Assembly: GCA_031425615.1 (NCBI GenBank) | Contig: JANPJR010000030.1 | Coordinates: 274,492-330,389 of the forward strand | Source: Cytophagales bacterium | Lineage (GTDB): Bacteria > Bacteroidota > Bacteroidia > Cytophagales > Microscillaceae | DNA: 55,898 nucleotides | Direction of reading: 5' to 3' | Shown here: piece after piece, positions 9,501-53,627 of the stretch | Position numbering within the stretch: position 1 is the stretch's first letter | Layout of the letters: every line of letters begins with the position of its first letter | Translations under genes and position numbers: made by a program | The notes under the pieces: model-generated | What the model saw: the letters and a program-made list of their open reading frames with translations, nothing else | Told to the model about the DNA's origin: nothing | Database searches by the model: none

Positions 9501-9575
9501 AAAAGACTAAAAAATGATATAAAAATGCCACCTAATCCAAAGAGGAATAAACAGTATTTATGAAAAAACTGATAA

Positions 9576-17798: not shown

Positions 17799-17856
17799 AG
17801 TTCAAAAGGGCTTAAAGTTTAAAAGGTTCAAAGTTCAAAAGGTTCAAAGTTTATAA
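17791..17856. repeat. GTTCAAAGG-type tandem array
   Basis: agggtcaaagttcaaaagggcttaaagtttaaaaggttcaaagttcaaaaggttcaaagttt, immediately followed by the aaaaactgacaactgaaaaagc motif. Confidence 0.7.
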
Positions 17857-20369: not shown

Positions 20370-20593
20370 TTTTTAAGTAAATTGTGCCACAAATCCACAG
20401 ATGATAAAGTTCTGTTATTTTTCTCACGTTTTTAAACATCAATATTTTTAATTTTGTTAATGGGTTTTATTTTTGTTAATGAAAAAAATAATAATAAAAT
20501 AAACACAAATACAAACATTTTTCGTTTTTTTTGGGAAAAACATTTTTTTCTGTACCTTTGATAAACTTTTTTATACAAAAAAATTAAAAATAC

Positions 20594-22696: not shown

Positions 22697-22885
22697 TCCA
22701 AGTTGTATGTTTTCAGTTTTTAAGTTGTTGGTTTTATAGATTTGCTCAAATTTATATTTTTGGACATAAAAAATTGTAAAATATTTTTTTGATTTTTAGG
22801 TGTTGATTTTTAGATAAGCAAAAAAAATGTTTCATTTTTTTGAGAAATGAAACGTTTTTTTTACTTTTAAGGGCTTAGAAAGTTT

Positions 22886-24538
22886 TTACAATTCTTCCGA
22901 AGGTTTTTCCAATTTACCTTCACCTTCTTTCAAAAATTTCTCAAAATCTTCTTCTGAGTTACCACTTTCTTTTTCCATTTCTTTACGTTTTTTACGTTTT
23001 TCTTCTGCTTCTTTTTCTGCTTTTTTGTTTGCCTCTTGTGTTTTTAGGTAGAGGTCATATAGGGCTGGAATAGCGTTGGTTTTGGCATCTTGGAAAGCAA
23101 GCGAAACTTGTGCTTTTATCAAATCTTTGTCTTTTTGTACACCATTTACCGTAAGGGCAAGACCTTTTAGGCTTTTTTCTATAGGCTCAAATGCCCCAGA
23201 TATTTCTTTTGTATTTTTGAGGAGTTGCACAAGGTCAAAATACAATACCATATTTTGGTTTTGGGTTATGCTTGTGATGAGGTTATTTTTGCCAAGTTCT
23301 CCTTTTTCTGCTTTTATTTTTTCCAAAAGTTGTTTGCCATTGATGACATGCAACATATCTTTTTCTATATAGACATAGCTTTCTTCGCTTCCTGTACCTC
23401 TGCCTTGATAGGTATTATCTGCTATTTTTTTGAAAGTTTCGCTTGTACGTTCATTACGCATCATATCATCAAATATTTTACGGTCTTTGATTTTGATGGT
23501 TGTACTAAAAGTTGGTATTTTTCCAGAGAAAATTTTTGAAAAATCTATATTTTCCAACGCAAAAGCTAAATCGCCTGTTACATTTTGTAATACACTAAAA
23601 AGTTCTGTACCTGTATCTTTTTTGAAATTGCGTGCTTCTTTTTCAAAATCTTTGTCTTTTTTGAGTTCTGCAATAATGCCTTCCATATTAAGTGCAGTGC
23701 TTAAAAACACTTTTGGATTTGCAACAGGGTTGTCGTTCAATACACTTTTATCAAGGTTTGTGCGGATGAGGCGGGCATATTTTTCTGATTTCCCTTTCAT
23801 AAAATAGGTAAAAATTTCCATGTTGATAGCACCACTTTCAAAATTGAGGGCAAAATTTGCCCCTATGATGTCGTCTTTTGCTTGATTTTTTACATTATTA
23901 GGCAAAAAATACATAGAAAGTGCGTCAGTTGCATTTTGTGTATTTATCCAAAATTGTATATCGTGTGTATTTTTTTGTGTTTCGGTAAATATAGGATTTT
24001 TTGCCCCAAAACTTTCGCTGACAGAGATTGCACTCCAAGCATTTACATTTTTGAGCAATTCATTTTCACTTTTATCGCCTATTGCTCCCCAAAGGATATT
24101 ATTTTTCCAAGCAAGCAAAAGCGGTTTTTTGTAAATATAGCTTAGGTTTTCTGCTTTTTTTGGTGCAATTTTAAATGCTTTTTGGGCACTTTCCGCCCAT
24201 TTTTTTTCGTCTTTGAGCAAAATGTGCATACCTAAAAAGGCATTTTCAGGCTTTTTGGCATCTGCATTTGTGTAGAAATACATGCGTTGTGTGTCGTCAA
24301 AACTACCATCAAGCAACAAAGGCAGTACTTCTGCAAAACTTTCTGATTCAGGAAAATTTTCTAAGAATTTTTTGTCCTTCAAAATTTTTATCATATCAGT
24401 TGATTTTCCCAAGATTTTTTTCAAATCAACTGTGATAACTGCATTGGCTGTGTTTGGGATTTGGGGCATTTTTCTGCCACCGCAAGACACTAATAAACCC
24501 AAGAAGAGGGCAAAAAGTGAGACTTTGGATAAATTCAT
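22886..24538 (-). CDS. hypothetical lipoprotein (DUF4836-like), C-terminal K/E-rich tail
   Basis: Likely start at the Met of MNLSKVSLFALFLGLLVSCGG (lipobox). The ORF-track start at 24586 runs into the tandem repeat array. About 550 aa, no enzymatic motifs. Confidence 0.55.
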   Translation of the reverse strand: MNLSKVSLFALFLGLLVSCGGRKMPQIPNTANAVITVDLKKILGKSTDMIKILKDKKFLENFPESESFAEVLPLLLDGSFDDTQRMYFYTNADAKKPENAFLGMHILLKDEKKWAESAQKAFKIAPKKAENLSYIYKKPLLLAWKNNILWGAIGDKSENELLKNVNAWSAISVSESFGAKNPIFTETQKNTHDIQFWINTQNATDALSMYFLPNNVKNQAKDDIIGANFALNFESGAINMEIFTYFMKGKSEKYARLIRTNLDKSVLNDNPVANPKVFLSTALNMEGIIAELKKDKDFEKEARNFKKDTGTELFSVLQNVTGDLAFALENIDFSKIFSGKIPTFSTTIKIKDRKIFDDMMRNERTSETFKKIADNTYQGRGTGSEESYVYIEKDMLHVINGKQLLEKIKAEKGELGKNNLITSITQNQNMVLYFDLVQLLKNTKEISGAFEPIEKSLKGLALTVNGVQKDKDLIKAQVSLAFQDAKTNAIPALYDLYLKTQEANKKAEKEAEEKRKKRKEMEKESGNSEEDFEKFLKEGEGKLEKPSEEL

Positions 24539-24680
24539 GTTCAAAAGTTTAAGGGTTTTAAAAGGTTTAATGTTCAAAAGATTCAAGGTTCAAAGGGTTC
24601 AAGGTTCAAAAGGTTTAAGGTTCAAAGGTTTTAAGGTTTAAGGGTTCAAGGTTCAAAAGGTTTAAGGGACAAAGTTTTTA
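24538..24680. repeat. largest GTTCAAAGG / GGTTTAAGG tandem array (about 14 units, roughly 9-10 bp period)
   Basis: ...ggttcaaagggttcaaggttcaaaaggtttaaggttcaaaggttttaaggtttaagggttcaaggttcaaaaggtttaagg..., seen directly in the sequence. Confidence 0.8.
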
Positions 24681-24769
24681 AAAAATTAAAAAAGGTTTAG
24701 ACGCATATTTTTTCTTTATTGTTTTAGACCTAATTTATTGAATCTTAAACTTTGAATTTCAAACTTTTT

Positions 24770-25774
24770 TTAATCTTCATCATCAACTTCATAGCCTATA
24801 AAATTCATATCAATTTTTGCACTTTCGCTAAGGTCTTGTGCTTCTTTGACAATATCAGTATCATCTTCGGGATAAAACCAATTTACTTCTACTTTTCCAC
24901 CACGTATTTCATACGCTTTTAGGCTACGAAGTGTGTCTAAAATGGCTTTGTAAGAGCTTGTATTAAAATAGGTAAGGCGAAAATTGAATGTAATTTTATT
25001 GTTGGATTCTTTGGTATATTTGTCAATCCAGCTAATAATTTTGGAGTAAAACTCGTTGGTGTATTCCAAATAGGATTCACCAGCCAGCTCACATACCCCT
25101 GTATCACCATTGAGCATTACATAAGGGGTATAAAATTCGCCTTTGTTACTTTTGATGTGTAATGTTTCCATTTGTTGCGTAGATTTTTTTTGGGTGGAAT
25201 TTTTTGAAACAGTAATTAAAAGGGTATAATATGTATATAAGTCATTTATAGGTTGCAAATCTACATGAATAGGATTTTCGGACACAAGGGTAGCTTTGAT
25301 AAGTCCTACGCCTGCTCCTTTGCTATCAGGGTTGTTTGGATTGTCATTTTCTACAATTTCCATGCGGTATTTTCTAAGCCCGTCAGTATCAAGCGTTTGG
25401 ATTTTTTTTGCTTGTTTATCAATAAATTCAGCTTGTTTGTGGGTGATGAGATTACCAGTAAAAAGGTGATAACTTGTTTCCCCTTCCGAAAGCACAATCG
25501 TACCAACAGGTGTAGCTTCGCCAAATTGGTTAATTTCTGCGGAATAATAAAAAATATTTTGGGCTAATTCCAAAAAAATATTGTGTAATTTTCTGCCTGC
25601 ACTTCTATTATTTACTTTATGAACGATTTCGTTGTCCATTTCTGCAATAATTTTGGTGGTGATAGAACCTCTGTAAGACAATATGACGTTTTCGTTGGGT
25701 AAATCCGCATAATATGCCAATGTACCAAGCTGTTCGAGCATATCTAATTTCATAATTGAGACAGTTTTTTCCAT
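24770..25774 (-). CDS. fusion protein: SiaB-like kinase-like domain (N) plus DUF1987/SiaC-like domain (C)
   Basis: Residues 1-190 (...NIFLELAQNIFYYSAE...SKGAGVGLIKATL) align with the 14323-14892 product. After the linker KNSTQKKSTQQMETL, residues about 205-334 (EFYTPYVMLNGDTGVCELAGESYLEYTNEFYSKIISWIDKY...ITFNFRLTYFNTSSYKAILDTL...VEVNWFYPEDDTD) align with the two DUF1987 proteins. Single continuous ORF. Confidence 0.75.
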   Translation of the reverse strand: MEKTVSIMKLDMLEQLGTLAYYADLPNENVILSYRGSITTKIIAEMDNEIVHKVNNRSAGRKLHNIFLELAQNIFYYSAEINQFGEATPVGTIVLSEGETSYHLFTGNLITHKQAEFIDKQAKKIQTLDTDGLRKYRMEIVENDNPNNPDSKGAGVGLIKATLVSENPIHVDLQPINDLYTYYTLLITVSKNSTQKKSTQQMETLHIKSNKGEFYTPYVMLNGDTGVCELAGESYLEYTNEFYSKIISWIDKYTKESNNKITFNFRLTYFNTSSYKAILDTLRSLKAYEIRGGKVEVNWFYPEDDTDIVKEAQDLSESAKIDMNFIGYEVDDED

Positions 25775-25838
25775 ATTTTATAAGTGTTTTTTAGGAAAAG
25801 TTTTTTTTCTTAAAGAAATTTTTAACTTTTAAAATTCA

Positions 25839-26093
25839 TTAAAAATTCAATTTCTCTACATTTCTTTTTTTTATCCATTCCAAATACACTTGTAATTCTT
25901 CTGCATTTTTGAGTGTTTGGAGGTCAGTATATTGTTTTGCGAGTGTTTTGTTGTCTATGTGGTGGTGTATGCTGCTATGACAAGGCTGGCACAGGGCTAC
26001 AGTTTTGGTGTGTTTTCCGCCTTTTGATTTTGGCAAAAGGTGGTGTTTAGAGGTGCGTTTTACCTCTCTTTCGCATAATTCGCAGATAGGCAT
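25839..26093 (-). CDS. small HNH endonuclease-motif protein
   Basis: 84 aa. CELC...HHLLPKSKGG...ALCQPCHSSIHH is an HNH/zinc-ribbon pattern. Confidence 0.65.
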   Translation of the reverse strand: MPICELCEREVKRTSKHHLLPKSKGGKHTKTVALCQPCHSSIHHHIDNKTLAKQYTDLQTLKNAEELQVYLEWIKKRNVEKLNF

Positions 26094-26308
26094 AAAGAAT
26101 TAGAAATTAAGAATTATTGTTGAGCTTAATTTAAAAATACATTTTAGATAATGATTTATGTGTTTTAAATATTTAATGTAAGTTTTTTCAAGCATTATTT
26201 TCAAGTATCATTCTAAAATTTGAAAAAATTTAAGATTATAAACCTTTTTTTTAAAATTATTCACAATTCCTATCCTAATTCCTAATTCCCAATTAAATTT
26301 GTTCCTAA

Positions 26309-26338
26309 TTAAAATCCCCCTTTGGAATTTAGGGGCTT
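26309..26338 (-). terminator. hairpin terminator element
   Basis: aaatcccccctttggaatttaggggctttt immediately 3' of the membrane-protein stop. Confidence 0.35.
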
Positions 26339-27766
26339 TTATTCATGGCTATCAAACACCACATTACCCAAACTTCTGCCATCATCACGTTTTTGGCGAA
26401 GAAGTATTGCTTCACGTTTTTCTTCTTGCAAATTAATAAAGTTGTAAATTAGCTTTCCTTTTTCAGTGGTTTCTATTTCTCCGTCCAAATCCTTAATAAG
26501 TTCTTGCATCATGTAATCAATCGTTTCTCTTGGTATGTTTGATTCACCACTTTCACGTGGATTGACAAGTTTTTCCAATTCTTCTGCGGTTACTTTGCCT
26601 TCTTCTTGCGAAAATATGGCTTTCATCAACCTTTTTCGGATATTTTCTAAATCTCTTTTGCGTGAAAATGCCCCAATTTGAAAATATCGCATGATAGGCA
26701 CAAGGAAAAATATCACTGAAAACACAAAAGGCACCCAACCCAACCCAACCGTAATGCCTGCTCCCATGTCTTGTTGCAAGCCCATAGATACAAAAGCAAG
26801 TGCAAAAGAAAGGTTAAACAAACCCATGAACACAATCCAAAAGTTACGCCAAAAAGTATTGCCTGTTAAGTTGTATTTTGGCACATATTCGTCCCAATAC
26901 CAAATTACTTTTTCTTTACCCTCTACACCTTTTGTACGTGTAAAATCTCTAAAATCGCCATACAATACTTTATTTTCGCTGATTTGGGCATCACCTTGAT
27001 ATTTGGCAATACTTTCCGAAAAAAAATTTTCTGCTTCTGCACTTCTCCAACCTGCCAAACCTATGATTTCACTTCGTGTAACAATGCCTTTATTATCTCT
27101 CAAATATTGTGCAAGTTCTCGGTGTTGGTCTTGTCGTGTGGTTTCAACTCTTTCAGGCCCAAAAACAAAATCATATACAGAGGCTACAAAGTCTTTCCCT
27201 CCTTTTTTATCCAATGCAGAAGTACGTGAATCATATTCTCGGTAACGATAACCGTCATTATCATACACATAGTGCGTATTGCTTGTGTGTGTATTCCAAA
27301 TAAAAATTCCCCTGAACAATTCACCTAAAATATTGAAAAAACCACCATCACTATCCGAAGAACTACTTGAATCGCTATCGCTGTTCCCTGAAAGAGAAGC
27401 AATAATTATCGCAATCAAAATTATTAGAAATATCACAAAATATACGACCAATGTAACCGAAATCCATATTTTAAAAAAAACCATAAAGGCTTTCCACAAT
27501 ACTTGTTTTGCCCCAAACCACCATTCTTCCCACGTTCTTTCACCTCTTTTGTGGAGAACTTCGCCAAAATCATAGATTAAATCACCATTTTCGGTAATTT
27601 TGAGGCGACAATCATACAACGACAGAAGCCTTGTCAATATATCTTTTGCGTCATTGACTGAAGTACCTGCTATGGATGCTGCGTCACCAATCGTAAGCAC
27701 TCTATCACGCCCTTGTATGCGTGTTTCTATTTTTTTTAGCCCTTCTAAAACTGCTACATTGCTCAT
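26339..27766 (-). CDS. hypothetical membrane protein with an internally duplicated soluble domain
   Basis: 475 aa. N-terminal ...LYDCRLKITENGDLIYDFG and C-terminal ...DLDGEIETTEKGKLIYNFI are clearly related repeats. Two hydrophobic blocks are separated by a Ser/Asp-rich linker. Confidence 0.45.
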   Translation of the reverse strand: MSNVAVLEGLKKIETRIQGRDRVLTIGDAASIAGTSVNDAKDILTRLLSLYDCRLKITENGDLIYDFGEVLHKRGERTWEEWWFGAKQVLWKAFMVFFKIWISVTLVVYFVIFLIILIAIIIASLSGNSDSDSSSSSDSDGGFFNILGELFRGIFIWNTHTSNTHYVYDNDGYRYREYDSRTSALDKKGGKDFVASVYDFVFGPERVETTRQDQHRELAQYLRDNKGIVTRSEIIGLAGWRSAEAENFFSESIAKYQGDAQISENKVLYGDFRDFTRTKGVEGKEKVIWYWDEYVPKYNLTGNTFWRNFWIVFMGLFNLSFALAFVSMGLQQDMGAGITVGLGWVPFVFSVIFFLVPIMRYFQIGAFSRKRDLENIRKRLMKAIFSQEEGKVTAEELEKLVNPRESGESNIPRETIDYMMQELIKDLDGEIETTEKGKLIYNFINLQEEKREAILLRQKRDDGRSLGNVVFDSHE

Positions 27767-27934
27767 GGTTTTGTATTTTTTTTAATATTTTTGAAATGTA
27801 ATTTTTGTGAAAGAAGTTTTAATATTTTGTGGATTTTTATTTTTGGTAAATGTATGATATTTTTTTTATTTTTTTATAAAAAATTTTTCTTTGGAAAATA
27901 AATAAAATAAGAAACAACAAGTGAAAAATTATTC

Positions 27935-29170
27935 CTAATTCTTAATTACTTTTACCACTTTCCCTTTCAATGCTTTCCCAAAAAAAGGTGAATTTTCCGA
28001 TTGCGATTGTCTTTGGTTATGTTCATATATCCAAGTTTCATCAGGTATAAAACACGTAATATTTGCTTTTTCGCCAACTGCGATTTTGGGTATTGGTAGG
28101 CGTAATAATTGGCGTGGGTTATAGGCAATTTTTTCCAAAAGCTGTGTAATAGATAAACCTGAATACATATTTGCCACTGAAAACGAAGTTTCCAAACCAA
28201 TAATTCCAAAAGGTGCAAGGTCATACTCCACTTGTTTTTGTTCCAAACTATGTGGTTGATGATCAGATACGATTACATCTATTGTACCATCAGCGAGTCC
28301 ATTTTGAAGTGCCAAAATATCAGATTTTTCTCTAAAAGGTGGATTTACTTTGTGGTATGTATCAAAATCTGCCAATATTTCATCTGTGAAAGCCAATTGA
28401 TGGCTACATATATCACACGACACGTGCAACCCTTGTTTTTTGGCTTCACGAATCAACAAAACAGATTTTTCGCAAGAAATCAATGAAAAATGCAATCTTC
28501 CGCCTGCATATTTTAATATTTCTAAATCCCTTTGTACCATGATTTCCTCTGCAATACGAGGCATACCTTTGAAACCCAATTTTGTAGCCATGATACCCTC
28601 GTGCATTTGTCCAAAAGCATTCAAAAAACTATCTTCTGGACGTTGTATCACCAATCCATCAAAATATTGGGTATATTGCAATGATTTGAGCAAAATATCT
28701 GTGTGCCAAATCGCATGTTCGCCATCACTAAACGCTACTGCTCCTGCATGGTGTAGGTCTATCATGTCGCTAAGTTCTTTGCCTTTGTTGTCAAGTGTAA
28801 GACTTGCAATTGCATGAAGTTGTGTTTGCTGGCTTTGTTGAGTGATTGCCTTAACCAAATGTCGGTGTTGCGTAGGCGGTGTAAGCGTGGGTAATAAACA
28901 AACTTCGGTAAAACCGCCCGCTTGTGCAGAAAGTTGTCCTGTATAAAAATCTTCTGCCAAATCTCTGAAATTTGACCGCATGTCTATCCAACCAATAGAT
29001 ACACAAAGGTTTTCATAAGCCACAACCTCACAATCTGCATTTATGTCAATGTGTTGTGAAGCAGGCACAAGTTGTGCAACAATGCCATTTTTGATGTGTA
29101 GATTTACACGTTGAAGATACAAAGGACTTGACTTGTCCAATAATTGTATGTTTTTAAACAAATATTCCAT
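27935..29170 (-). CDS. pyrC: dihydroorotase-like cyclic amidohydrolase
   Basis: 411 aa. Metal-binding region ...VIVSDHQPHSLEQK..., ...ILKYAGGRLHFSLIS..., overall dihydroorotase/allantoinase-family layout. Confidence 0.65.
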   Translation of the reverse strand: MEYLFKNIQLLDKSSPLYLQRVNLHIKNGIVAQLVPASQHIDINADCEVVAYENLCVSIGWIDMRSNFRDLAEDFYTGQLSAQAGGFTEVCLLPTLTPPTQHRHLVKAITQQSQQTQLHAIASLTLDNKGKELSDMIDLHHAGAVAFSDGEHAIWHTDILLKSLQYTQYFDGLVIQRPEDSFLNAFGQMHEGIMATKLGFKGMPRIAEEIMVQRDLEILKYAGGRLHFSLISCEKSVLLIREAKKQGLHVSCDICSHQLAFTDEILADFDTYHKVNPPFREKSDILALQNGLADGTIDVIVSDHQPHSLEQKQVEYDLAPFGIIGLETSFSVANMYSGLSITQLLEKIAYNPRQLLRLPIPKIAVGEKANITCFIPDETWIYEHNQRQSQSENSPFFGKALKGKVVKVIKN

Positions 29171-29472
29171 TTAAAAGCCAAAAATGCAGTTTTTTTTTCT
29201 AAAATAAAAGCAAAGAAAGAGATTATTTTTTTAAATTTTTTTTTTAAATTTTTGTTATCTTTGCGAGATAGTTGTTTTTTGGCTAAAAAGCCCATTAACC
29301 CCAAAAGGAAACAAACTATAAATCCCCTAAATGTTGGCTTCCAAACCCACATTTCTGTACGATACAAGAACTTGCCCCAAACACATAAGTACGGGCTTGA
29401 AACTCGCACCATGACCTAAAACAAACTAAAAAACCACCAACTTAAAACTGACAACTTAAAAACCTTACAACA

Positions 29473-30081
29473 TTGAGCATATTAGTATTAGACAATTACG
29501 ATTCTTTTGTATATAATTTGGTTGAGTATTTGCGAGATTTGGGCGAATCGCCCCAAGTATTTCGCAATGATAAAATTGATTTGGCACAAGTTGCCCAATT
29601 TGATAAAATATTGCTTTCGCCAGGCCCAAGTTTGCCCCAAGAAGCAGGTATTATGCCCCAATTATTGAAAAATTATTACAAAGAAAAAAATATTTTGGGC
29701 GTGTGTTTAGGGCATCAAGCCATAGGCGAATGTTTTGGGGGAAAATTACACAATTTGCCTGATGTATTGCATGGCATACAATCAGAAATTACTTTTTTGG
29801 AAGAAAGTTTTATAGAAAACCTTAGTAATTTTTTGAATATTAATGATGTTAACCTTTTTAAAAATATTCCAAAAAAAATTAAAGTTGCACATTATCATTC
29901 GTGGGTTATTGATGAAAAAGATTTCCCTAAAAATGAGCTAAAAATCCTTGCAAAAGATAGCAACAACCACATCATGGCAATACAACACCACACATACAAA
30001 GTATTTGGCGTACAATTTCACCCTGAATCTGTACTAACAGAATATGGAAAAGAAATGCTGAAAAATTGGGTGGAAATGTAG
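29473..30081 (+). CDS. pabA: class-I glutamine amidotransferase, anthranilate/aminodeoxychorismate synthase component II
   Basis: MSILVLDNYDSFVYNLVEYL...ILGVCLGHQAIGE (catalytic Cys)...HYHSW...QFHPES (His/Glu). Confidence 0.85.
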   Translation: MSILVLDNYDSFVYNLVEYLRDLGESPQVFRNDKIDLAQVAQFDKILLSPGPSLPQEAGIMPQLLKNYYKEKNILGVCLGHQAIGECFGGKLHNLPDVLHGIQSEITFLEESFIENLSNFLNINDVNLFKNIPKKIKVAHYHSWVIDEKDFPKNELKILAKDSNNHIMAIQHHTYKVFGVQFHPESVLTEYGKEMLKNWVEM

Positions 30082-30154
30082 TTTTTTTAGTTTGTCAGTA
30101 ATATGTTTTTCCATTAACAAGTTTTACTTTTTTTATAAATTGAAAAAAGCCACC

Positions 30155-30200
30155 CAACATACCCCCAAAACCCAAAGGGGGAGCAGTCCCAAGTGGGAAT
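30155..30200 (+). terminator. CCCC-AAA-GGGG hairpin terminator
   Basis: acccccaaaacccaaagggggagcagtcccaagtgggaat, 3' of pabA. Confidence 0.4.
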
Positions 30201-30228
30201 AAAAAACCTTTGACTACAAAATTAACAA

Positions 30229-30340
30229 AAAAAAACTCAATTAACTGAAAAAACTGACAACTAAAAAAACTGAATTGACTGAAAAAACTGACAACTGAAA
30301 AGACTAAATTAACTGAAAAAACTAAATTAACTTAAAAAAT
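30229..30340 (+). repeat. tandem array of the AACTGACAACTGAAAAA / AACTAAATTAACTGAAAAA dispersed motif
   Basis: Five or more units directly 5' of the 30342 start codon. An inverted partner array lies at 32950-33016. Confidence 0.8.
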
Positions 30341-30341
30341 C

Positions 30342-32954
30342 ATGTCCAATCAAACCGCTACAAAAACCTTTAAAATACGTCCTATTCATACCAAAATTAT
30401 ATTTTGGGTGTTTTTTACTGCACTTTTGGCAATGATTGGGATTGCGATAAGCATATACAAATGGATATACAATCCTTTGGAACTCACTTTTTTGGGTTGG
30501 GTACTGATAAGTGGGGGTATTGTTTTTCTGCAATTTGGTTTATGGTTTTCGTTTTTACGTGTGGTTGTAGCACCTTTACAAAATCTTGCACAAACTGCAA
30601 AATCAATATCAGAAGGCGACATTTCTATAAATGTAGAAATTAATGCTTTTGATGAAATAGGAAGTATTGCCCATTCCACAAATTCTATTGCACAAAGCAT
30701 CAAACAAGCGAGAGAATTTACAAATAGCATAGGCGAAGGGAATTTTGAGGTTTCAATTTTACAAACTAACCAAAAAAATACAGAAAAAGATGGGCTGTTT
30801 ATTTCATTAATGAAAATGCGAAACCAGCTTAAAAAAGTAGCAGATGAAGATGGAAAACGTAATTGGATTGCCAAAGGTATGGCAGAATTTACCAAAATAT
30901 TACAGTCCAACGATATTAGTATTCAAGAATTGGGTAAAGCTGTAATTGTTGAACTTATCAATTATTTGAAAGCCTCACAAGGGGCAATATTCATGTTGAA
31001 TAATTTTCAAGAAGACAATCCATATTTAGAACTTGTGGCAACTTATGCATACAATAAATTGTCATTTGAAGAAAAAAAAATTATCCTAAAAGAAAATTTT
31101 GCTGATGGTCTTGTGGGACAGGCTTTTTTGGAAAATAATATCATCAACCTTTCTAATATTCCGCCCAATTACCCTTACATTTCTTCAGGTTTGGGTGAAA
31201 CACAACCAAAAAATATCCTTATTGTACCACTTCAACTCAATGGTAAAACGGAGGGCGTAGTAGAAATTGCATCTTTTAGTACGTTCCAACCACACGAAAT
31301 AGAATTTATTGAGCGTATTTCGCAAAATATTGCCTCTGCAATACTTACCATTAAAACAAATGACAACACCAAAAAATTATTATATGAATCTCAAACGCTT
31401 GCCACAAAACTACAAGCACAAGAAAATGAACTAAAAGAAAGTTTATTAGAATTGCAAAGTAGTCAAATGGAAATAGAAAAGAAAAACCAAGAAATAGAAG
31501 CCCAAAAACGCAAAACCGAAGAAGCACTTGAAGAACAAACCGAAAAAAGCGAAATGCTTGAAGCACAAGAAGAAGAAATGCGTCAAAATATGGACGAATT
31601 GCTTACCATACAAGAACAAATGCGTATTACGCAGCTTGAACTTGATGGTCAGCTCAATGCAATCAATTCAAGTGCCATTTGCAAAGTAGAATATTCATTG
31701 GAAGGCAAAATCATAAAAGCAAATGAAAGTTATTGCAAACTTGTAAAATGTGATGAAGATGAAGTAAAAAATCTCCCACATAGCACATTTGTTGATAATA
31801 GATTTGCAAAAACAGACGCATATAAAATGTTTTGGGAAAATCTTAAAAATGGTATTCCACAAACAGGTGATTATCAATATGTGGATTGGGAAGGTGAAGA
31901 GTTTTGGATAAATGCGGTGTATTCGCCTATGTTGGATAACAAAGGCAAACCTCAAAAAATTATTCAACTCGCTTTTGACATTACAGAAGCAAAAAATCTC
32001 CTCCAAGAAATTCAAATGCAAACTTCTGTACTCAAAATGCAAGAAACGGAACTAAAAGACCGTATGAAACAACTCACAAACGCACAAGCAGAAATCAATG
32101 CCAAAAATCAAGCAATTATTGAACTCAAGGAAGAAGAAACCCGCAATGCACAACAACGTACCAGAGAAACTGAAAGCAAAAACCAACTTATCACATCAAG
32201 CATCAATTACGCCCAAAGTATTCAAAAAGCCATATTACCCAATGAAGACAAAATAAAGCAATATGTACAAGATTTTTTCGTGATTTTTATGCCAAAAGAT
32301 ATTGTTTCAGGTGATTTTTATTGGTTTTTGCATGTAGAACAACTCAATATTTCGTTTTTTGCTACTGTTGATTGCACAGGACATGGTGTGCCAGGTGCTT
32401 TTATGTCTATTATTGGTAATACTATTCTTAATGAAATCGTCAATGGACAAAAAATATATGAACCACACAAAATCCTTGAACTCTTACATATTGGCATAAG
32501 AACACGCCTAAGACAAGGCGAAACCACCAACCAAGATGGTATGGATATCGTACTCTGTAAAATAGCCCCAACAGCAACAGAAGAGGTAATCGTAACTTTT
32601 GCAGGAGCAAAAAGACCAATTTTTGTGTACGAAAATACATTACACGAAATACAAGAACATAAAGGCGACCGCAAATCTATTGGTGGATTTCAAGGAGAAG
32701 ATTATAGAGCTTTTTCGCAACAAGAATTTACCCTCAAAAAAGGAAATATCTTGTACCTCACAAGTGATGGCATAATGGATAATCCTAACCAACAACGTAA
32801 AAAATTTGGTGTACAAAAATTTAAAGATATTGCCCTCCAAAATATCAATAAAACCCTAAAACAACAATGTATTCTGCTTATCAACGAAATCATTTCACAC
32901 CAAGACGGAGCAGACCAACGTGATGATATTACAGTTATGGGGATAAGGTTGTAA
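30342..32954 (+). CDS. membrane sensor PP2C/SpoIIE phosphatase: 2 TM, HAMP, GAF, PAS, coiled-coils, PP2C (second SiaA-like protein)
   Basis: 870 aa. The TM pair flanks a short loop. HAMP-like ...VVVAPLQNLAQTAKSISEGDISINVEI.... GAF ...SQGAIFMLNNFQ...GVVEIASFS. PAS ...AICKVEYSLEGKII...WINAVYSPMLDNKG. C-terminal PP2C KDIVSGDFYWFLHV...VDCTGHGVPGAFMSIIG...YLTSDGIMD. Confidence 0.85.
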   Translation: MSNQTATKTFKIRPIHTKIIFWVFFTALLAMIGIAISIYKWIYNPLELTFLGWVLISGGIVFLQFGLWFSFLRVVVAPLQNLAQTAKSISEGDISINVEINAFDEIGSIAHSTNSIAQSIKQAREFTNSIGEGNFEVSILQTNQKNTEKDGLFISLMKMRNQLKKVADEDGKRNWIAKGMAEFTKILQSNDISIQELGKAVIVELINYLKASQGAIFMLNNFQEDNPYLELVATYAYNKLSFEEKKIILKENFADGLVGQAFLENNIINLSNIPPNYPYISSGLGETQPKNILIVPLQLNGKTEGVVEIASFSTFQPHEIEFIERISQNIASAILTIKTNDNTKKLLYESQTLATKLQAQENELKESLLELQSSQMEIEKKNQEIEAQKRKTEEALEEQTEKSEMLEAQEEEMRQNMDELLTIQEQMRITQLELDGQLNAINSSAICKVEYSLEGKIIKANESYCKLVKCDEDEVKNLPHSTFVDNRFAKTDAYKMFWENLKNGIPQTGDYQYVDWEGEEFWINAVYSPMLDNKGKPQKIIQLAFDITEAKNLLQEIQMQTSVLKMQETELKDRMKQLTNAQAEINAKNQAIIELKEEETRNAQQRTRETESKNQLITSSINYAQSIQKAILPNEDKIKQYVQDFFVIFMPKDIVSGDFYWFLHVEQLNISFFATVDCTGHGVPGAFMSIIGNTILNEIVNGQKIYEPHKILELLHIGIRTRLRQGETTNQDGMDIVLCKIAPTATEEVIVTFAGAKRPIFVYENTLHEIQEHKGDRKSIGGFQGEDYRAFSQQEFTLKKGNILYLTSDGIMDNPNQQRKKFGVQKFKDIALQNINKTLKQQCILLINEIISHQDGADQRDDITVMGIRL

Positions 32955-33016
32955 TTTTTTTCAGTTGTCAGTTTTTTCAGTTAATTTAGTTTTTTCAGTT
33001 GTTATTTTTTTAGTTA
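32950..33016 (-). repeat. inverted copy of the AACTGACAACTGAAAAA array
   Basis: ttttttcagttgtcagttttttcagttaatttagttttttcagttgtt is the reverse complement of the 30229-30340 units. Confidence 0.8.
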
Positions 33017-33070
33017 AAGGTATTTTATTTCCTTGGGGCTTGCTCTCCCTTTGAGGGTTGGGAGTTTCCT

Positions 33071-33367
33071 TTAAAAAACCTCCATATACTCCTCCACCGA
33101 AAAAGCCACAGGTTTATCTGCAAAAAGGGTTTTGGTAAATGCCCAAACCCCTTTGAATAATTCAGAATTGCGGTATTTATCCAAATATTCTGTTGAAATC
33201 CAATGGCTGTGCGTACAAAAAATATTTGGATTGTGTGCATCACGCCACAACACTAATCGTAGGCAACCTTCAAAATGCCTAATTTTTTGCTTATTTTCCT
33301 CAAAATTTTGTAAAAAAGCCTCTACTTTATCTTCTTGAAAAGTAAGACGTACAATGCGAATAATCAT
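33071..33367 (-). CDS. antibiotic-biosynthesis-monooxygenase (ABM) domain protein
   Basis: MIIRIVRLTFQEDKVEAFLQNF...FEGCLRLVLWRDAHNPNIFCTHSHWIS is an ABM fold pattern. The ORF track extends to 33403 but that extension overlaps the dispersed repeat, so the internal Met is preferred. Confidence 0.6.
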   Translation of the reverse strand: MIIRIVRLTFQEDKVEAFLQNFEENKQKIRHFEGCLRLVLWRDAHNPNIFCTHSHWISTEYLDKYRNSELFKGVWAFTKTLFADKPVAFSVEEYMEVF

Positions 33368-33695
33368 AAAAATAATATCAGTTATCAGTTTTTGAGTTGT
33401 CAATTTAAAAATATTTTTTCAAAAATAAATGATTTTCTACACTTTATTCCTAAAATTATCGCTAAAAATTCAATTTCAATTTTAATAAAATTATTTTTTT
33501 GGATTTGTTCCCTTTGAAGGTTAGAGACTTAATCACTACAAAAAAAATTATTTTTCATTTCCTTTTAACCAAAAAAAACGTTTATATTTGTAGTTATTTT
33601 TTTATCTTGAAAATGAAAAATAATTGTTTTTATTTTTAACAAAATTTTAAAAAATAAACAAATTAAATTTTTAGACTTTTAAAACGCATCAAAAA

Positions 33696-36263
33696 ATGGC
33701 AGGCAAAAATCAAAATTCAGGTATTTCTAATGTAATAGGCAAACTCCAACCACAGGCATTGGATTTGGAGGAATCTGTATTGGGAGCGTTAATGATTGAA
33801 AAAGACGCACTCAATTTGGTGATTGATACCCTGCGTCCTGAAAGTTTTTATAAGCCTGCACACCAAGAAATTTATAGGGCAATTTTTGACCTTTTTGCAA
33901 GCTCTCAGCCTATTGACTTCAAAATGGTAGTGCAACAACTCCGCAAAAATGGCAAAATAGACCTCGTAGGCGGTGCCAATTATGTAATGCAACTCACAAG
34001 TGGCGTGCAATCGTCTGCCAATATAGAAGCGCATGCAAGGATTATCACAGAACAGGCAATCAAGAGAGAACTTATACAAATATCTTCCGAAATACACAAA
34101 GATTCGCTTGATGAAGGAAAAGATATTTTTGACCTTTTAGACCAAACAGAGCAAAAACTTTTTCAGGTTTCAGAGAGCAATATTCGAAAGCAATATTCCA
34201 CTATGGGCAACCTTGTATCTCAAGCCCTCAAAGAACTCGAAGACCGTCGCCAACTCAAAGACGGTCTTACAGGCGTTCCTACAGGTTTTAGTGATTTGGA
34301 TAGGATTACAGGCGGGTTTCAAAAATCGGATTTAATCATACTCGCAGCGAGGCCAGCCATGGGCAAGTGCCACGCACTTGGCACGATTATTGTTATGTGG
34401 GACGGAACGCTCAAAAAAGTAGAGGATATTGTGGTGGGAGATGTGCTAATGGGTGATGATTCTACCCCAAGAAAAGTACTTTCATTGGCTCGTGGGCGTG
34501 AAATGATGTACTGGGTTAGGCAAAATAAAGGGGTGGATTATCGGGTAAATGAAAGCCATATTTTATCCTTAAAAAGAAGCAGAACAGAATACAAACATAA
34601 AAATGGCGATATTTTAGACATTGAATTAAAAGAATTTTTACAAAAAAGTAAAAAATTTAAAAGCAATTATAAAGGATATAGGGTTGCAGTTGAGTTTGAG
34701 GAAAAAACCACCACCATAGAACCTTATTTTTTAGGGCTTTGGTTGGGTGCTGGAAACTCCAATTCTGCCCAAATTACAAACACTGATGAGGAGGTTAAAA
34801 ACTATCTTTATGAATATGGAGACAGACTAAAAATCCCTGTTTCTGTCAGTATTTTAAATAATAATCCTAAACACACAAGATATAAACTGCACAAAGATTA
34901 TGATAATGATTGGTCGTTTTTAGAATTTGAAATCAATAGGTTAAATTTAAGAAACAACAAACACATTCCTCACCATTATTTGGTGAACAATACCCAAAAA
35001 AGGTTAGAGTTATTGGCGGGTTTAGTAGATAGTGATGGGCATTATTTGAAAGGTAGCAATGGGTACGAGATTACCTTTAAAAACAAACATCTTGCCCAAC
35101 AGCTTAAATTTTTGGTAGATTCGCTTGGTTTTCGTGCCTCTTTAATTCCTAAAAAAGCAACCATCAAAAGCATAAATTACGAAACAGAGGTATATCGTGT
35201 GCGTTTTTTTGGTGATGTGGATAAAATCCCAGCAAGAATCCCTCGCAAAAAAGCCCTTCCTTGGCGTGATACACATCGTACTTGGCTACAAACGGGTTTT
35301 AAGATAGAAAAAGACATAATAGATGATTATTATGGTTTTGTGATAGATGGCAATCACAGATTTTTGTTGGAGGATATGACTGTGGTGCATAATACTGCGT
35401 TTTCGCTTTCATTGTTGCGAAATGCTGCAGTAGATTTTGGCAAACCTTGTGCCTTTTTTTCATTGGAAATGTCAGAAATACAGCTTGTAAATCGTCTTTT
35501 GTCAGGTGAGGCAGAGGTAGAAAGTGACAAAATAAGACGTGGCAGAATGGAAGAGTGGGAATGGCTAAAAATCCACGAAAAAACCCAAAAACTTAGAGAA
35601 TCACCCATTTTTATTGACGATACGCCTGCTATTTCTTTACTTGAATTGCGCGCAAAATGTAGGCGTTTGAAAGCACAACACGATATACAGCTGATAGTGG
35701 TAGATTATCTCCAACTTATGACCGCTTCCACAGGCAAAAATACAATGGGTAATCGCGAGCAAGAGATTTCTACGATTTCACGTGGATTAAAAATGATCGC
35801 AAAAGAACTTAATGTACCTGTAATTGCCTTAGCACAGCTCAGTAGGGCGGTTGAAACAAGGGGAGGCGAAAAAAAACCGCAACTTTCTGACCTTAGGGAA
35901 TCTGGCTCATTGGAACAAGATGCTGATATTGTGATTTTCCTATATCGTCCAGAATATTACGGTTTCGCAACTGATGCAGAAGGAAACGCAACCAAAGATG
36001 TAGGCGAAGTAATCATTGCAAAACACCGTAACGGTTCGCTGGACACGGTTAAATTAAAATTTATTGGACGATACACTAAATTTGAAAACTTAGAAGGGGC
36101 TAATTTTATGCCTCGTACCAACAATACACAAGCTACTACACAACCAATTTTTAATAGTAAAATCAATAATACTACACCAACCACACAACAAAACCCAAAT
36201 ACCCAAGACATGAATGGATTCCAAAATAATACACCAAGATTAGATGATGAACCACCTTTTTAA
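33696..36263 (+). CDS. dnaB: replicative DNA helicase DnaB, interrupted by an in-frame intein
   Basis: N-terminal DnaB domain (LDLEESVLGALMIE...). Walker A LAARPAMGK|C is interrupted. The extein resumes ...HN|TAFSLSLLRNAAV. Downstream are Walker B LIVVDYLQLM and RecA-like motifs (LAQLSRAVE, SGSLEQDADIV). Low-complexity C-terminal tail. Confidence 0.9.
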   Translation: MAGKNQNSGISNVIGKLQPQALDLEESVLGALMIEKDALNLVIDTLRPESFYKPAHQEIYRAIFDLFASSQPIDFKMVVQQLRKNGKIDLVGGANYVMQLTSGVQSSANIEAHARIITEQAIKRELIQISSEIHKDSLDEGKDIFDLLDQTEQKLFQVSESNIRKQYSTMGNLVSQALKELEDRRQLKDGLTGVPTGFSDLDRITGGFQKSDLIILAARPAMGKCHALGTIIVMWDGTLKKVEDIVVGDVLMGDDSTPRKVLSLARGREMMYWVRQNKGVDYRVNESHILSLKRSRTEYKHKNGDILDIELKEFLQKSKKFKSNYKGYRVAVEFEEKTTTIEPYFLGLWLGAGNSNSAQITNTDEEVKNYLYEYGDRLKIPVSVSILNNNPKHTRYKLHKDYDNDWSFLEFEINRLNLRNNKHIPHHYLVNNTQKRLELLAGLVDSDGHYLKGSNGYEITFKNKHLAQQLKFLVDSLGFRASLIPKKATIKSINYETEVYRVRFFGDVDKIPARIPRKKALPWRDTHRTWLQTGFKIEKDIIDDYYGFVIDGNHRFLLEDMTVVHNTAFSLSLLRNAAVDFGKPCAFFSLEMSEIQLVNRLLSGEAEVESDKIRRGRMEEWEWLKIHEKTQKLRESPIFIDDTPAISLLELRAKCRRLKAQHDIQLIVVDYLQLMTASTGKNTMGNREQEISTISRGLKMIAKELNVPVIALAQLSRAVETRGGEKKPQLSDLRESGSLEQDADIVIFLYRPEYYGFATDAEGNATKDVGEVIIAKHRNGSLDTVKLKFIGRYTKFENLEGANFMPRTNNTQATTQPIFNSKINNTTPTTQQNPNTQDMNGFQNNTPRLDDEPPF
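34368..35393 (+). mobile_element. DnaB intein (342 aa) carrying a LAGLIDADG-type homing-endonuclease domain
   Basis: Begins Cys (CHALGTIIVMWDG, block A) and ends VVHN followed by extein Thr. Internal YFLGLWLGAGNS (degenerate) and LLAGLVDSDGHY (canonical LAGLIDADG). Length divisible by 3; excision restores GKT of the P-loop. Confidence 0.8.
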
Positions 36264-37167: not shown

Positions 37168-37190
37168 ATTCCCTCAAATACACATAATGC

Positions 37191-37240
37191 AACACAGACT
37201 TTTAGTCTGTGAAATGAAACAACAGACTAAAAGTCTGTTC
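37191..37240 (+). promoter_or_regulatory. pair of mutually inverted hairpins (cacagacttttagtctgtg / aacagactaaaagtctgtt)
   Basis: Seen directly in the sequence between the SDR stop and the hslV start. Could act as a terminator or an operator. Confidence 0.35.
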
Positions 37241-38923: not shown

Positions 38924-39565
38924 ATGCTTGCAAAAATATATTTATTGCGTTTAGCCATATTTGGTGGTATTTTTTTTGGCAATGGGATTTTTTTAAACTA
39001 TTTTTCAAATCAAGAAAAAGAAGTTAAAAAAAATATCAAAGAAATTACGCATATCCACAATCCAACCTCGCAAGAAAAAGGCACAATGCAACCCGCATGG
39101 TATCCTTATTTTAATCCCAAAAAAGCACACACGATTGTTTCCAATAGCCAAACATTGTCTTTTGAATCTATAGAAAATTTAGAAAAAGATAATTTCTTAC
39201 ATTATGAATTAACCAACGTATCTGCAAAAGACATTGTATTGCCTACGCAAGATGGCAGTTTGATGATGATAAGAGAAGGTAAAAACCCAGATGGAAAATG
39301 GCAGGCAATAGAATATTGGCGATATGATTGGGGTTTTTCGCCCAATTTTGGACAAATTATACTTAAAAGCAAACAAGCTATTTTTTTTACTGCACCTATT
39401 TACACAGGCAATTTTAAAACTGAAATGCGTTTTAAACTTAAATTAGATAGCGAAAAATCTATTTTTATTACTTCTCCAACTTTCAAAGGCAATGTGGAAA
39501 TTTCGCAATTTAATCTCCCTCCAAAATGCTTAGGTAAAAAATGGGATGGATTTGCTACGAAATAA
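38924..39565 (+). CDS. hypothetical protein with N-terminal signal anchor
   Basis: ORF 38855-39565. Likely start is at the Met of MLAKIYLLRLAIFGGIFFG. No motifs. Confidence 0.35.
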   Translation: MLAKIYLLRLAIFGGIFFGNGIFLNYFSNQEKEVKKNIKEITHIHNPTSQEKGTMQPAWYPYFNPKKAHTIVSNSQTLSFESIENLEKDNFLHYELTNVSAKDIVLPTQDGSLMMIREGKNPDGKWQAIEYWRYDWGFSPNFGQIILKSKQAIFFTAPIYTGNFKTEMRFKLKLDSEKSIFITSPTFKGNVEISQFNLPPKCLGKKWDGFATK

Positions 39566-39638
39566 AAGCCACCTACCCCCCAAAGTGGAGCAAACAGCCT
39601 TTATCTTAATTTGATATATAAATTTAATGCGTATTAAT

Positions 39639-43030: not shown

Positions 43031-43036
43031 AAAGCT

Positions 43037-43090
43037 TAACCTTTGAACTTTGAACTTTAACCCTTGAACTTTGAACTTTTTAAACCTATA
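43037..43090. repeat. GTTCAAAGG-family tandem array (TTGAACTTT orientation)
   Basis: cctttgaactttgaactttaacccttgaactttgaacttttt. Confidence 0.7.
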
Positions 43091-45959: not shown

Positions 45960-45960
45960 A

Positions 45961-46050
45961 GCCCCCTAACCCCCAAAGGGTGAATTAAAATTAAATTTAC
46001 ACATAAAATTATACATCAAAGGCTATTTACTCCCCTTTGGGCTGGGGGCT
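45961..46050 (+). terminator. long stem-loop terminator element (gccccctaacccccaaaggg ... cccctttgggctgggggc)
   Basis: Two GC-rich arms that are reverse complements of each other flank about 50 bp of AT-rich DNA, 3' of mutS2. The left arm equals the 9476-9500 element. Confidence 0.45.
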
Positions 46051-46059
46051 ATTTTTACC

Positions 46060-53603: not shown

Positions 53604-53627
53604 GAAAAAAATTAGGAATTTGAAATT

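Follow-up and report, generated by a model that had tools for sequence, protein, structure and literature searches.

Inverted tandem arrays around a sensor PP2C phosphatase gene of a Cytophagales bacterium: probable sister copies of a dispersed intergenic element oriented by genes

The gene of a sensor PP2C phosphatase is enclosed by two tandem arrays of one short repeat in opposite orientations. The question raised by this locus is whether such geometry marks an invertible or mobilisable cassette, as suggested in the initial annotation, or a regulatory bracket, or whether it arises from a rule that applies to other genes as well. The phosphatase gene was considered within the whole stretch of DNA analysed here, 55,898 nt long and further referred to as the window.

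Structure of the phosphatase locus

The features of the locus, from left to right, are as follows.

30147–30228, plus strand: outer left arm, GC-rich hairpin (family C) and linker GGGAATAAAAAACCTTTGACTACAAAATTAACAA (alignment, fold)
30229–30341, plus strand: 5' tandem array, 113 nt, with the A-rich ACTGA strand as the sense strand and the last base 2 nt before the ATG
30342–32954, plus strand: sensor PP2C phosphatase gene, SiaA-like, 870 aa, HAMP-GAF-PAS-SpoIIE/PP2C (ORF list, Pfam, PDB 6k4e_A)
32955–33016, minus strand (that of ACTGA): 3' tandem array, 62 nt; the phosphatase sense strand reads TTTTTTCAGTTGTCAGTT
33017–33072, minus strand: inverted copy of the linker and the family-C hairpin, stem 33060–33064 / 33045–33049 (alignment, fold)

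The 5' array contains 12 ACTNA cores spaced by 9, 9, 7, 9, 9, 9, 7, 9, 9, 9 and 9 nt, and has a higher-order unit with the period of 34 (2.8 copies, 90% matches by TRF); no ATG was found in it. The 3' array is its reverse complement and starts directly after the TAA stop. Thus both arrays proposed earlier, a tandem array of five or more units at 30229–30340 and a reverse-complement one directly 3' of the gene, are present. The inverted bracket of approximately 100 bp proposed together with them proved to be larger than first stated. In a gapped alignment, positions 30161–30269 match 33065–32956 over 112 columns, 93 of which are identical (83%), with the longest exact match of 24 nt; the shorter arms extended by this alignment are 73 nt (81% complementary) and 40 nt (95%) long. 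Beyond the arrays, the inverted repeat takes in the GC-rich hairpin and the unique linker. The stem of the left hairpin is formed by 30162–30166 and 30177–30181 and its loop is AAAACCCAAA, whereas the right hairpin element abuts the stop codon of a convergent ABM-domain gene (33071–33367, minus strand; Pfam ABM). The family-C hairpins are defined by per-copy folds only, the MAFFT alignment intended for covariation being out of register.

Eleven copies of the 15-mer AACTGAAAAAACTGA with at most two mismatches are present, whereas 0.77 would be expected by chance. The two phosphatase flanks are mutual closest relatives and have in common a hairpin and a linker that they do not share with the other copies of the repeat. 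As these flanks are closest to each other and also yield the strongest pairing tested (see below), they indicate an event specific to the phosphatase gene, either inverted duplication or conversion.

The HAMP-GAF-PAS-PP2C architecture assigned earlier from the sequence agrees with Pfam (HAMP 73–120, GAF 194–334, PAS 452–549, SpoIIE/PP2C 673–869), and the top match among solved structures is the PP2C chain 6k4e_A (E 1.3e-31). The protein shares with SiaA-type sensor PP2Cs the TM-HAMP N-terminus, the PP2C domain and the linkage of its orthologues to a SiaB-like kinase and SiaC; it differs from them by the extra GAF and PAS modules. The proposed connection to a SiaABC-type partner switch holds: in two more distant relatives (L054 and L056) the orthologue heads the DUF6272-SiaC-TPR_PP2C-SiaC operon, being located directly upstream of it. 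The same operon is present in the window at 14892–11133, separate from the phosphatase gene, so that the linkage is broken here; the ancestral position, 14893–16256, was searched for a remnant of a PP2C pseudogene, and none was found. The fused DUF6272-SiaC gene occupies 24770–25774, and the distance of approximately 4.5 kb between the fused kinase/DUF1987 gene and the phosphatase gene had been given correctly. The closest protein relatives come from Microscillaceae/Cytophagales MAGs, and a search of genome contigs with the phosphatase protein yielded distant relatives only.

Orientation of the arrays relative to genes

The repeat with the ACTGA core (family A) is indeed dispersed, as had been supposed. 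The window contains 15 intergenic arrays among about 46 genes, with two hits in coding regions; the arrays are thus common, which goes largely against the cassette reading of the initial annotation. With at most one mismatch, 20 of the 22 hits of AAACTGAYAACT are intergenic, while the intergenic share of the window is only about one fifth. The lengths vary widely, from 1 to 12 units per array. The other arrays needed for the argument, including the largest one of a second family (family B, TTGAAC core), are listed below.

24539–24681, minus strand: largest family-B array, sense strand CTTTGAAC / CCTTAAAC, period 7–8, abutting the start of gene 22886–24538 in the orientation described below
29424–29472, plus strand: family-A array immediately 5' of the pabA/GATase start (Pfam GATase), which brackets pabA together with the next feature
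30082–30100, minus strand: single family-A unit directly after the pabA stop, sense strand TTTTTTTAGTTTGTCAGT
33374–33406, minus strand: family-A array immediately 5' of the ABM gene start
54303–54336, plus strand: family-A array 10 nt past the stop codon of the amidohydrolase gene 54347–55384 (minus strand), T-form on the sense strand of the gene
55409–55437, minus strand: family-A array upstream of this amidohydrolase gene, 24 nt from its start

Followed along its ACTGA strand, a family-A array leads to an ORF boundary at most 45 nt away in 14 of the 15 cases (5 starts and 9 stops). Hence the polarity rule: this strand is sense just before a start and antisense just after a stop. The one-sided binomial P equals ~5e-4, a value that, like all statistics here, rests on 56 kb, few loci and crude ORF calls. 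The distance between an array and the codon ranges from −2 to 45 nt. Among the five start-side arrays it is 2 nt for PP2C and 6–45 nt for pabA, ABM, amidohydrolase and others; longest-ORF calling can shift such starts toward stop-bearing arrays, a bias to which the stop-adjacent class is not subject.

The two strands of the window are used about equally (~8 to 8), and therefore polarity tracks genes and not the replication strand. Leaders and trailers free of repeats have the AT skew of +0.06 on both sides, which is not significant. Therefore general UTR composition does not explain polarity, and the possibility that it is merely an effect of A-rich leaders and T-rich trailers was rejected. 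The T-strand of the phosphatase array was also considered as open in all frames; this was rejected, as the frames contain 4, 1 and 3 stops.

The rule is not limited to family A. All six clusters of family B, as counted in a mismatch search of the window, point to an ORF boundary within 31 nt. In unrelated metagenome contigs, the nine ACTGA arrays with both flanks callable all fit the rule, three of them at stops; many arrays there finish just upstream of an ATG, and the family-A 19-mer is found inside TAACTGA arrays of diverse contigs. The rule is common to two sequence-unrelated families and several lineages. An Rfam scan of the complete window at gathering thresholds gave no hits, and viral contigs scanned for the array gave a single, irrelevant match.

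It follows from the rule that a gene having arrays on both sides automatically lies inside inverted repeats. There are three such genes in the window: the phosphatase gene, pabA (29473–30081) and the amidohydrolase gene (54347–55384). The unit at 30082–30100 is moreover complementary to units of the phosphatase 5' array 150 nt downstream. We consider it probable that the phosphatase bracket comprises two sister copies of one composite element that is dispersed between genes, and owes its geometry to polarity, rather than being a flip-switch. The element would consist of the GC hairpin, the linker and the ACTGA-core tandem array, and it would belong to TAACTGA-type short tandem repeats of untranslated leaders and trailers. 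The geometry of the bracket would then be a by-product of the polarity rule and no mark of a flip-switch or cassette.

Mobility, turnover and possible function

The suggestion of the initial annotation was that the phosphatase gene forms an invertible or mobilisable cassette, in which the inverted repeats of ~110 bp would be recombination sites for the inversion or movement of this one gene. It could draw on the arms themselves (83% identity over 112 columns with the exact core of 24 nt), on the position of the gene outside the operon headed by its orthologues in L054 and L056, on a context that differs again in a relative with a 76%-identical orthologue, and on a Logan contig from the same sample that is broken off within the 3' array, at position 32970. 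However, no recombinase, integrase or transposase domain was found by Pfam in the ~46 called ORFs of the 56 kb, and the arms are of an ordinary kind, belonging to polar families by which other genes are bracketed as well. The inner ends of the inverted repeat lie next to the start and stop codons, which is also the case at other array-flanked genes, and at its outer ends no direct-repeat target duplication is visible by eye in the alignment; therefore, of the hallmarks of a composite transposon or MITE, inverted repeats are present, but a transposase and a visible target duplication are not. The 5' junction is the same in an independent Logan assembly, where contig L061 contains the pabA-array-PP2C junction at 100% identity (one sample only); contigs of the sample SRR20217183 match the window at 100%. 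Rearrangement is clade-wide and includes the amidohydrolase and pabA neighbourhoods. Finally, the minimum for homologous recombination in E. coli is ~25–30 nt, in comparison with which the exact match of 24 nt is marginal. Given also that the orientation is set by the adjacent ORF and that orthologues have different arrays or none, neither a flip-switch nor a transposable cassette is supported, and we regard this as the least probable of the explanations weighed here.

The arrays turn over fast among relatives. In the PP2C orthologue with 76% identity (L003), the array at the start is of family B and the stop is followed by AATGATA heptamers, and phosphatase orthologues at ~51–54% have no arrays. 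Similarly, a 78% orthologue of pabA has family B at the 5' end and AATGATA at the 3' end, and a 93% orthologue of the amidohydrolase is without arrays. A putative transposase was considered for the gene adjoining the L003 orthologue and rejected, as the Pfam hits of this gene are to HTH and sub-threshold only.

Such turnover is what would be expected if the arrays were a functionless, slippage-prone satellite, that is, neutral microsatellite-like expansions with polarity created by an insertion or expansion bias. Presence and absence shift quickly among relatives at 76–93% protein identity, higher-order units are typical of satellite evolution, and the array-flanked genes of the window share no functional category by Pfam. 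Nevertheless, strict polarity and tight abutment to codons in two families and several phyla are hard to obtain in the absence of selection or a directional mechanism, and we hold the satellite explanation to be very improbable.

If the arrays are read by the cell, the reader could act on DNA: a sequence-specific protein would recognize the repeats as a gene-boundary roadblock or insulator for RNA polymerase leaving or entering the ORF. The inward-pointing rule, valid from both sides of genes in two unrelated families and other lineages, is consistent with this, as is the failure of flank composition to explain the rule. Elsewhere heptamer repeats are bound by proteins, and at Nostoc recO they modulate the effects of LexA/NtcA (bioRxiv 10.1101/2022.06.06.494920). 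However, the reader protein is purely hypothetical; the number of units varies from 1 to 12, arrays are lost or replaced among close relatives, and the same slot is taken by different families. This makes the DNA-level reading improbable.

A broader conjecture is that unrelated short-array families (ACTGA, TTGAAC and others) serve some Cytophagales, Cyanobacteria and Beggiatoaceae as a general code for gene boundaries, each array being oriented so that one particular strand leads into the ORF next to it, be it from the 5' or the 3' side. The putative directional reader would be either a protein that binds single-stranded RNA or a DNA-binding one, and the phosphatase mRNA would in addition be looped, with the partner-switch input controlled at the level of RNase III or translation. 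We consider this distinctly unlikely as a whole.

Returning to the composite element as the preferred explanation, its arrays, if active at all, would act as RNA. The 5' array would provide a structure-free and AUG-free leader with A at −3, −6, −12 and −13, a context that Shine-Dalgarno-independent Bacteroidota ribosomes favour, and the 3' array would provide a U-rich trailer. In F. johnsoniae, A at −3/−6/−12/−13 and low structure raise initiation (PMC6847099). The predicted minimum free energies of the arrays alone are −0.4 kcal/mol (5') and 0.0 kcal/mol (3'). The A(−3) context is missing at two other array-preceded starts.

Given the shared 34-nt higher-order unit, the two arrays could pair if they are on one transcript. 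Formation of the predicted ~62-bp stem would leave the mRNA closed and the leader sequestered over its distal two thirds. The RNA duplex of the arrays has 62 bp and −74.8 kcal/mol, compared with −19.0 ± 4.4 for shuffled partners, and in the minimum-free-energy fold of the whole phosphatase mRNA 70 bp are paired between the ends. Among 2025 upstream/downstream pairings, that of the phosphatase flanks is the strongest (−63 kcal/mol; the next-best partner for the same 5' flank gives −32). As the best-matched 5'/3' flanks in the window, the arrays may have the role of a regulatory bracket, as had been offered alongside the cassette.

These properties, together with the unit shared by both arrays, argue for a closed-loop mRNA switch, in which the arrays are kept complementary and the stem, cut by RNase III or occluding the leader, sets the phosphatase level. 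However, complementarity between the 5' and 3' flanks of the same gene is not enriched across genes (Mann-Whitney P = 0.31), and it was rejected as a general feature. Moreover, the arrays of the 76% orthologue (family B at 5', AATGATA at 3') are non-complementary, and more distant orthologues lack arrays, hence the stem is not conserved. Such a switch therefore appears unlikely, although we rank it above the other alternatives.

Scans for σ70 promoters around the phosphatase gene and for intrinsic terminators yielded nothing above shuffle expectation, with no terminator at either end of the gene. The Bacteroidota −7 box TAnnTTTG is absent from 30082–30341; since upstream of starts in the window it is no more frequent in sense (15) than in antisense (18), it is uninformative in the window.

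The idea of an invertible cassette for the sensor phosphatase is thus replaced by a pair of leader and trailer repeats that could pair in the mRNA. Since the polarity rule holds from either side of an ORF, its mechanism must be directional and work both before starts and after stops. The rule is a simple genome-wide statistic, applicable to complete genomes.

Comparison with known repeat systems

In invertons and shufflons, a nearby invertase acts at short specific sites and usually flips promoters or gene ends. The phosphatase bracket also has a segment between inverted repeats, but there is no recombinase in the window and the arms are generic polar repeats. REP/BIME elements are dispersed intergenic palindromes, often located just after stops and having 3'-UTR roles. 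The composite element is likewise dispersed, intergenic and post-stop, and the family-C hairpin is REP-like in size and position; unlike REPs, the arrays are non-palindromic and unstructured, and no RAYT-like transposase was seen in the window. The sequences on both sides of rRNA genes, 5' and 3', form RNase III processing stems. The phosphatase flanks have similar long-range complementarity, but here it concerns an mRNA, and the pairing is predicted only and is not conserved in orthologues.

In Nostoc PCC 7120, contiguous heptamer repeats TTCAAAA and GAYAAT occur near start codons (bioRxiv 10.1101/2022.06.06.494920). Family B (GTTCAAAG/GTTCAAAA) shares its core with TTCAAAA and likewise has a near-start position, whereas the Nostoc heptamers belong to another phylum and are known for promoter-proximal LexA/NtcA effects, with no described polarity rule or 3' class (bioRxiv 10.1101/2022.06.06.494920).

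The closest known kind of family A is the TAACTGA-type leader repeat. TAACTGA repeats (MacGregor 2015) are direct repeats located between genes in Beggiatoaceae, Cyanobacteria and a few Bacteroidetes, for which repeats a post-transcriptional role was proposed; in Beggiatoaceae and Flexibacter litoralis forward repeats are located 1–43 nt upstream of starts, and F. litoralis has one reverse set after a stop codon (PMC4679880). Family A resembles them in the ACTGA core, tandem arrangement, intergenic location, taxonomic range and a forward set that ends a few nucleotides before the start, and in both cases other families of short repeats occupy the same intergenic regions. The exact head-to-tail heptamer is not retained here: TAACTGATAACTGA, that is, (TAACTGA)x2, has no exact match in the window, the best ones having one mismatch (33378, 49578, 54318), and the PP2C arrays match it with two. 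In place of the clean heptamer, the phosphatase arrays have the 9/9/7-nt spacing, A-runs and the 34-nt unit. Further, arrays of family A can be fused to the GC hairpin element, and the reverse-after-stop arrangement, anecdotal for TAACTGA repeats (PMC4679880), is the majority here, with 9 stops against 5 starts.

Structure of the bracket and the enclosed gene

The ORF at 30342–32954 (+) encodes an 870-aa product in which Pfam identifies HAMP (73–120), GAF (194–334), PAS (452–549) and SpoIIE/PP2C (673–869) domains. Among solved structures, the best match (E 1.3e-31) is to chain 6k4e_A of a PP2C serine phosphatase. The HAMP-GAF-PAS-PP2C assignment of the initial annotation is confirmed and strengthened. 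Two arrays enclose the gene:

30229–30341, 5' array (TRF: period 34, 2.8 copies, 90% matches; sub-periods 9 and 18)
32955–33016, 3' array, reverse complement of the 5' array; its first base directly follows the TAA stop codon

Counted by core, the 5' array contains 12 ACTNA pentamers, 7 of them exact ACTGA, spaced by 9, 9, 7, 9, 9, 9, 7, 9, 9, 9 and 9 nt, and ends 2 nt before the phosphatase ATG. In the repeat search, the inverted-repeat arms were 73 nt long with 81% complementarity and 40 nt long with 95%. In a gapped alignment (30161–30269 vs 33065–32956) the arms are 83% identical over 112 columns, the longest exact match being 24 nt. The repeat continues past the arrays through a GC-rich hairpin and a linker that is unique (GGRAATAAAAWACCTTTRACTA...TAACAA). 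The enclosure by inverted arrays proposed initially is confirmed and was, if anything, understated. None of this is a product of chance: the core 15-mer occurs 11 times vs 0.77 expected, and the arrays pair with a duplex energy ~12 sd beyond shuffles. The arms are sister copies of one another, with the hairpin, the linker and a 34-nt higher-order unit in common, unlike other family members.

Taken singly, the arrays are nearly unstructured (MFE −0.4 kcal/mol for the 5' and 0.0 kcal/mol for the 3' array); their predicted duplex comprises ~62 bp at −74.8 kcal/mol. In the MFE fold of a hypothetical transcript 30200–33030, 70 bp form between the ends, while ~38 nt at the end of the leader stay unpaired. 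Among 45 × 45 upstream/downstream flank pairs, the phosphatase gene's own pair was the strongest (−63 kcal/mol), the second-best partner of its 5' flank reaching only −32 kcal/mol. Same-gene complementarity of 5' and 3' flanks showed no overall enrichment across the window genes (Mann–Whitney P = 0.31). One of the strongest cross-flank pairings comes from two adjacent near-identical palindromes (ACACAGACTTTTAGTCTGTG / ACAGACTAAAAGTCTGT) at 37186–37238, between the genes of a short-chain dehydrogenase and a proteasome-type subunit.

At two loci of relatives (L054 and L056) the phosphatase orthologue heads the operon PP2C-DUF6272-SiaC-TPR_PP2C-SiaC. The Sia-like operon of the window, 14892–11133 (−), has the order DUF6272-SiaC-TPR_PP2C-SiaC and lacks the sensor PP2C gene. 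The corresponding slot (14893–16256) is ~1.4 kb of AT-rich, almost ORF-free DNA, and a search of it revealed no phosphatase remnant. Relative to the operon position in L054 and L056, the gene has indeed moved. In one gene, 24770–25774 (−), DUF6272 (SiaB-like) and SiaC, encoded separately elsewhere in the window, are fused; this gene adjoins a small HNH endonuclease gene, 25839–26093 (−). The DnaB replicative helicase gene, 33696–36263 (+), is split by an intein: between the two terminal DnaB domains (N and C), Pfam places a Hom_end-associated Hint domain and LAGLIDADG homing-endonuclease domains. A partial gene, 55779→55898 (−), runs off the window end; inspection by eye suggests a putative type-IX secretion C-terminal sorting domain at its C-terminus (…GTFNGKPCPEGVYVWKAQYENILKKDEKVKTQGMVTLVR).

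Polarity of the repeat families

All intergenic regions of the window were listed, and arrays with the ACTGA core (family A) were sought using the queries AAACTGAYAACT and AACTGAAAAAACT with at most one mismatch. The matches comprised 15 intergenic sites and no more than 2 in coding sequence. The nearer of the two ORF boundaries flanking each site was then determined. It is found 3' of the array, as read along the ACTGA strand, at 14 of the 15 sites, at a distance of −2 to 45 nt (one-sided binomial P ~5e-4). Start codons account for five of these boundaries, with the array on the sense strand of the gene, and stop codons for nine, with the array on the antisense strand, so that the mRNA would bear UCAGU-type units. 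The lone exception, at 55631, is situated downstream of a hairpin of family C (a GC-rich element) abutting a stop codon, in the same hairpin-then-array order as in both arms around the phosphatase gene. Strand usage is even (~8 to 8); therefore the polarity tracks genes rather than replication. In unrelated metagenome contigs carrying the 19-mer (GC 0.34 to 0.63), the rule was kept in 9/9 ACTGA arrays with both flanks callable, three of them at stops.

It follows from this rule that arrays at both ends of a gene place it between inverted repeats. Two more genes in the window are flanked in this way:

29424–29472 and 30082–30100, family A at each end of pabA
55409–55437 and 54303–54336, family A at each end of the amidohydrolase gene (54347–55384)

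Together with the phosphatase gene this makes three doubly flanked genes vs ~1.1 expected from single-end frequencies, which is not significant.

Family B (CTTTGAAC/CCTTAAAC, period 7–8) is unrelated to family A in sequence and shows the same polarity behavior. With up to two mismatches allowed, all six clusters are directed at an ORF boundary no more than 31 nt away (4 starts, 2 stops), the CTTTGAAC strand running into the adjoining ORF in each. The clusters and the family C hairpins are:

11531–11590, 17789–17853, 24539–24681, family B (GTTCAAAG/GTTTAAGG, up to 143 nt)
43035–43084, 53088–53148, 53633–53666, family B, further clusters
9469–9513, 9520–9564, 16111–16156, 30153–30198, 39561–39605, 45954–45998, family C, strand unmarked
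26299–26343, 33028–33072, 46015–46056, 55740–55783, family C (−)

In family C, a stem of 4–5 bp closes a C-rich loop, (T)AACCCCCAAA. Its stems vary among copies with pairing preserved (CCCC/GGGG, CTCCC/GGGAG, CCAC/GTGG), and five copies meet a stop codon, beginning at it or overlapping it (TAA-AAGCC...). It has no match in Rfam and may be a REP-like 3' element of this genome. One more short intergenic family, AATTAGGAATT / AATTCCTAATTCC, adjoins stop codons both in the window (26265–26294, 53604–53630) and in a close relative (L060, 776–830).

Turnover of the arrays and the cassette hypothesis

The closest phosphatase orthologue (76% identity) is found in the sister species GCA_013297825.1 (locus L003), where a family B array extends up to the start codon and AATGATA heptamers follow the stop, then a canonical terminator. 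Orthologues at ~51–54% identity (L054, L056, L058) have no arrays. The pabA orthologue of the sister species (78%) is preceded by a ~100-nt family B array and followed, past its stop codon, by AATGATA heptamers, and the amidohydrolase orthologue in L060 (93% identity) has no family A array at either end. Because orthologues at 76–93% identity carry other families or no family A array, arrays are gained, lost and switched in family between closely related species, while the before-start and after-stop slots persist. The sister species uses the same slots as the window with different sequence families (L003 12602–12640; L062 1050–1075, 1826–1890 and 1890–2125): AATGATA-type heptamers after genes end in GAAACAGCC, and a ~230-nt family B array precedes a response-regulator gene.

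The initial annotation suggested that the bracket delimits an invertible or mobilizable cassette. This is not supported. Pfam detected no recombinase, integrase or transposase in all ~46 called ORFs of the 56 kb, polar repeats bracket other genes too, and in the alignment of the arms no direct duplication was seen at their outer ends. Gene order near pabA and the amidohydrolase gene also varies among these relatives; rearrangement is a general feature of the clade rather than one peculiar to the phosphatase gene. A single sample, SRR20217183, supplies two Logan contigs that match the window at 100% identity. L061 (window 19473–32326) spans the pabA-array-gene junction in the reference orientation and ends inside the phosphatase gene. 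L064 begins at window position 32970, inside the 3' array, a break within the repeat being uninformative; these contig ends may stem from graph breaks caused by the repeat or from heterogeneous array lengths. The reading that fits best is that the bracket comprises two sister copies of a leader/trailer repeat that is polar and evolves fast.

Possible mode of action and relation to known repeats

If the arrays, which lack AUG, have a role, it would probably lie at the RNA level. Co-transcription of the phosphatase gene with pabA is possible, since no promoter consensus was found in the spacer between them and no terminator at either end of the gene. Bacteroidota ribosomes ignore Shine–Dalgarno sequences. 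In F. johnsoniae, low structure together with A at −3, −6, −12 and −13 favors initiation (PMC6847099); ahead of the phosphatase start (...AACTTAAAAAATC-ATG), each of these four positions is A. Leader context as an explanation of the arrays is nevertheless incomplete, because leaders of family B are rich in pyrimidines, A(−3) is missing at two other array-preceded starts, and repeat-free flanks have no A/T skew. The polarity therefore belongs to the repeats as such and requires either a reader or an origin that is directional. The cross-family polarity rule can be tested genome-wide at low cost and is of somewhat more interest than the phosphatase gene itself.

Among described repeats, those closest to family A are the TAACTGA direct repeats known from Beggiatoaceae, Cyanobacteria and five Bacteroidetes, mostly 'forward' and ending a few nt before the start codon, for which S1, Csp or CsrA were proposed as readers (PMC4679880). 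In Flexibacter litoralis, 12/14 sets are forward, 1–43 nt upstream of the start, and one is reverse directly after a stop (PMC4679880). Family A resembles these repeats in core, location and orientation, but differs in its 9/9/7 phasing and fails the strict definition, the window containing no exact tandem TAACTGA. It goes beyond them in three features: most of its arrays are of the reverse-after-stop class, a higher-order unit is present, and arrays can be fused to a GC hairpin. Family B, in turn, shares its core with TTCAAAA heptamers near start codons in Nostoc, where deletion of a different heptamer array altered LexA/NtcA responsiveness (bioRxiv 10.1101/2022.06.06.494920).
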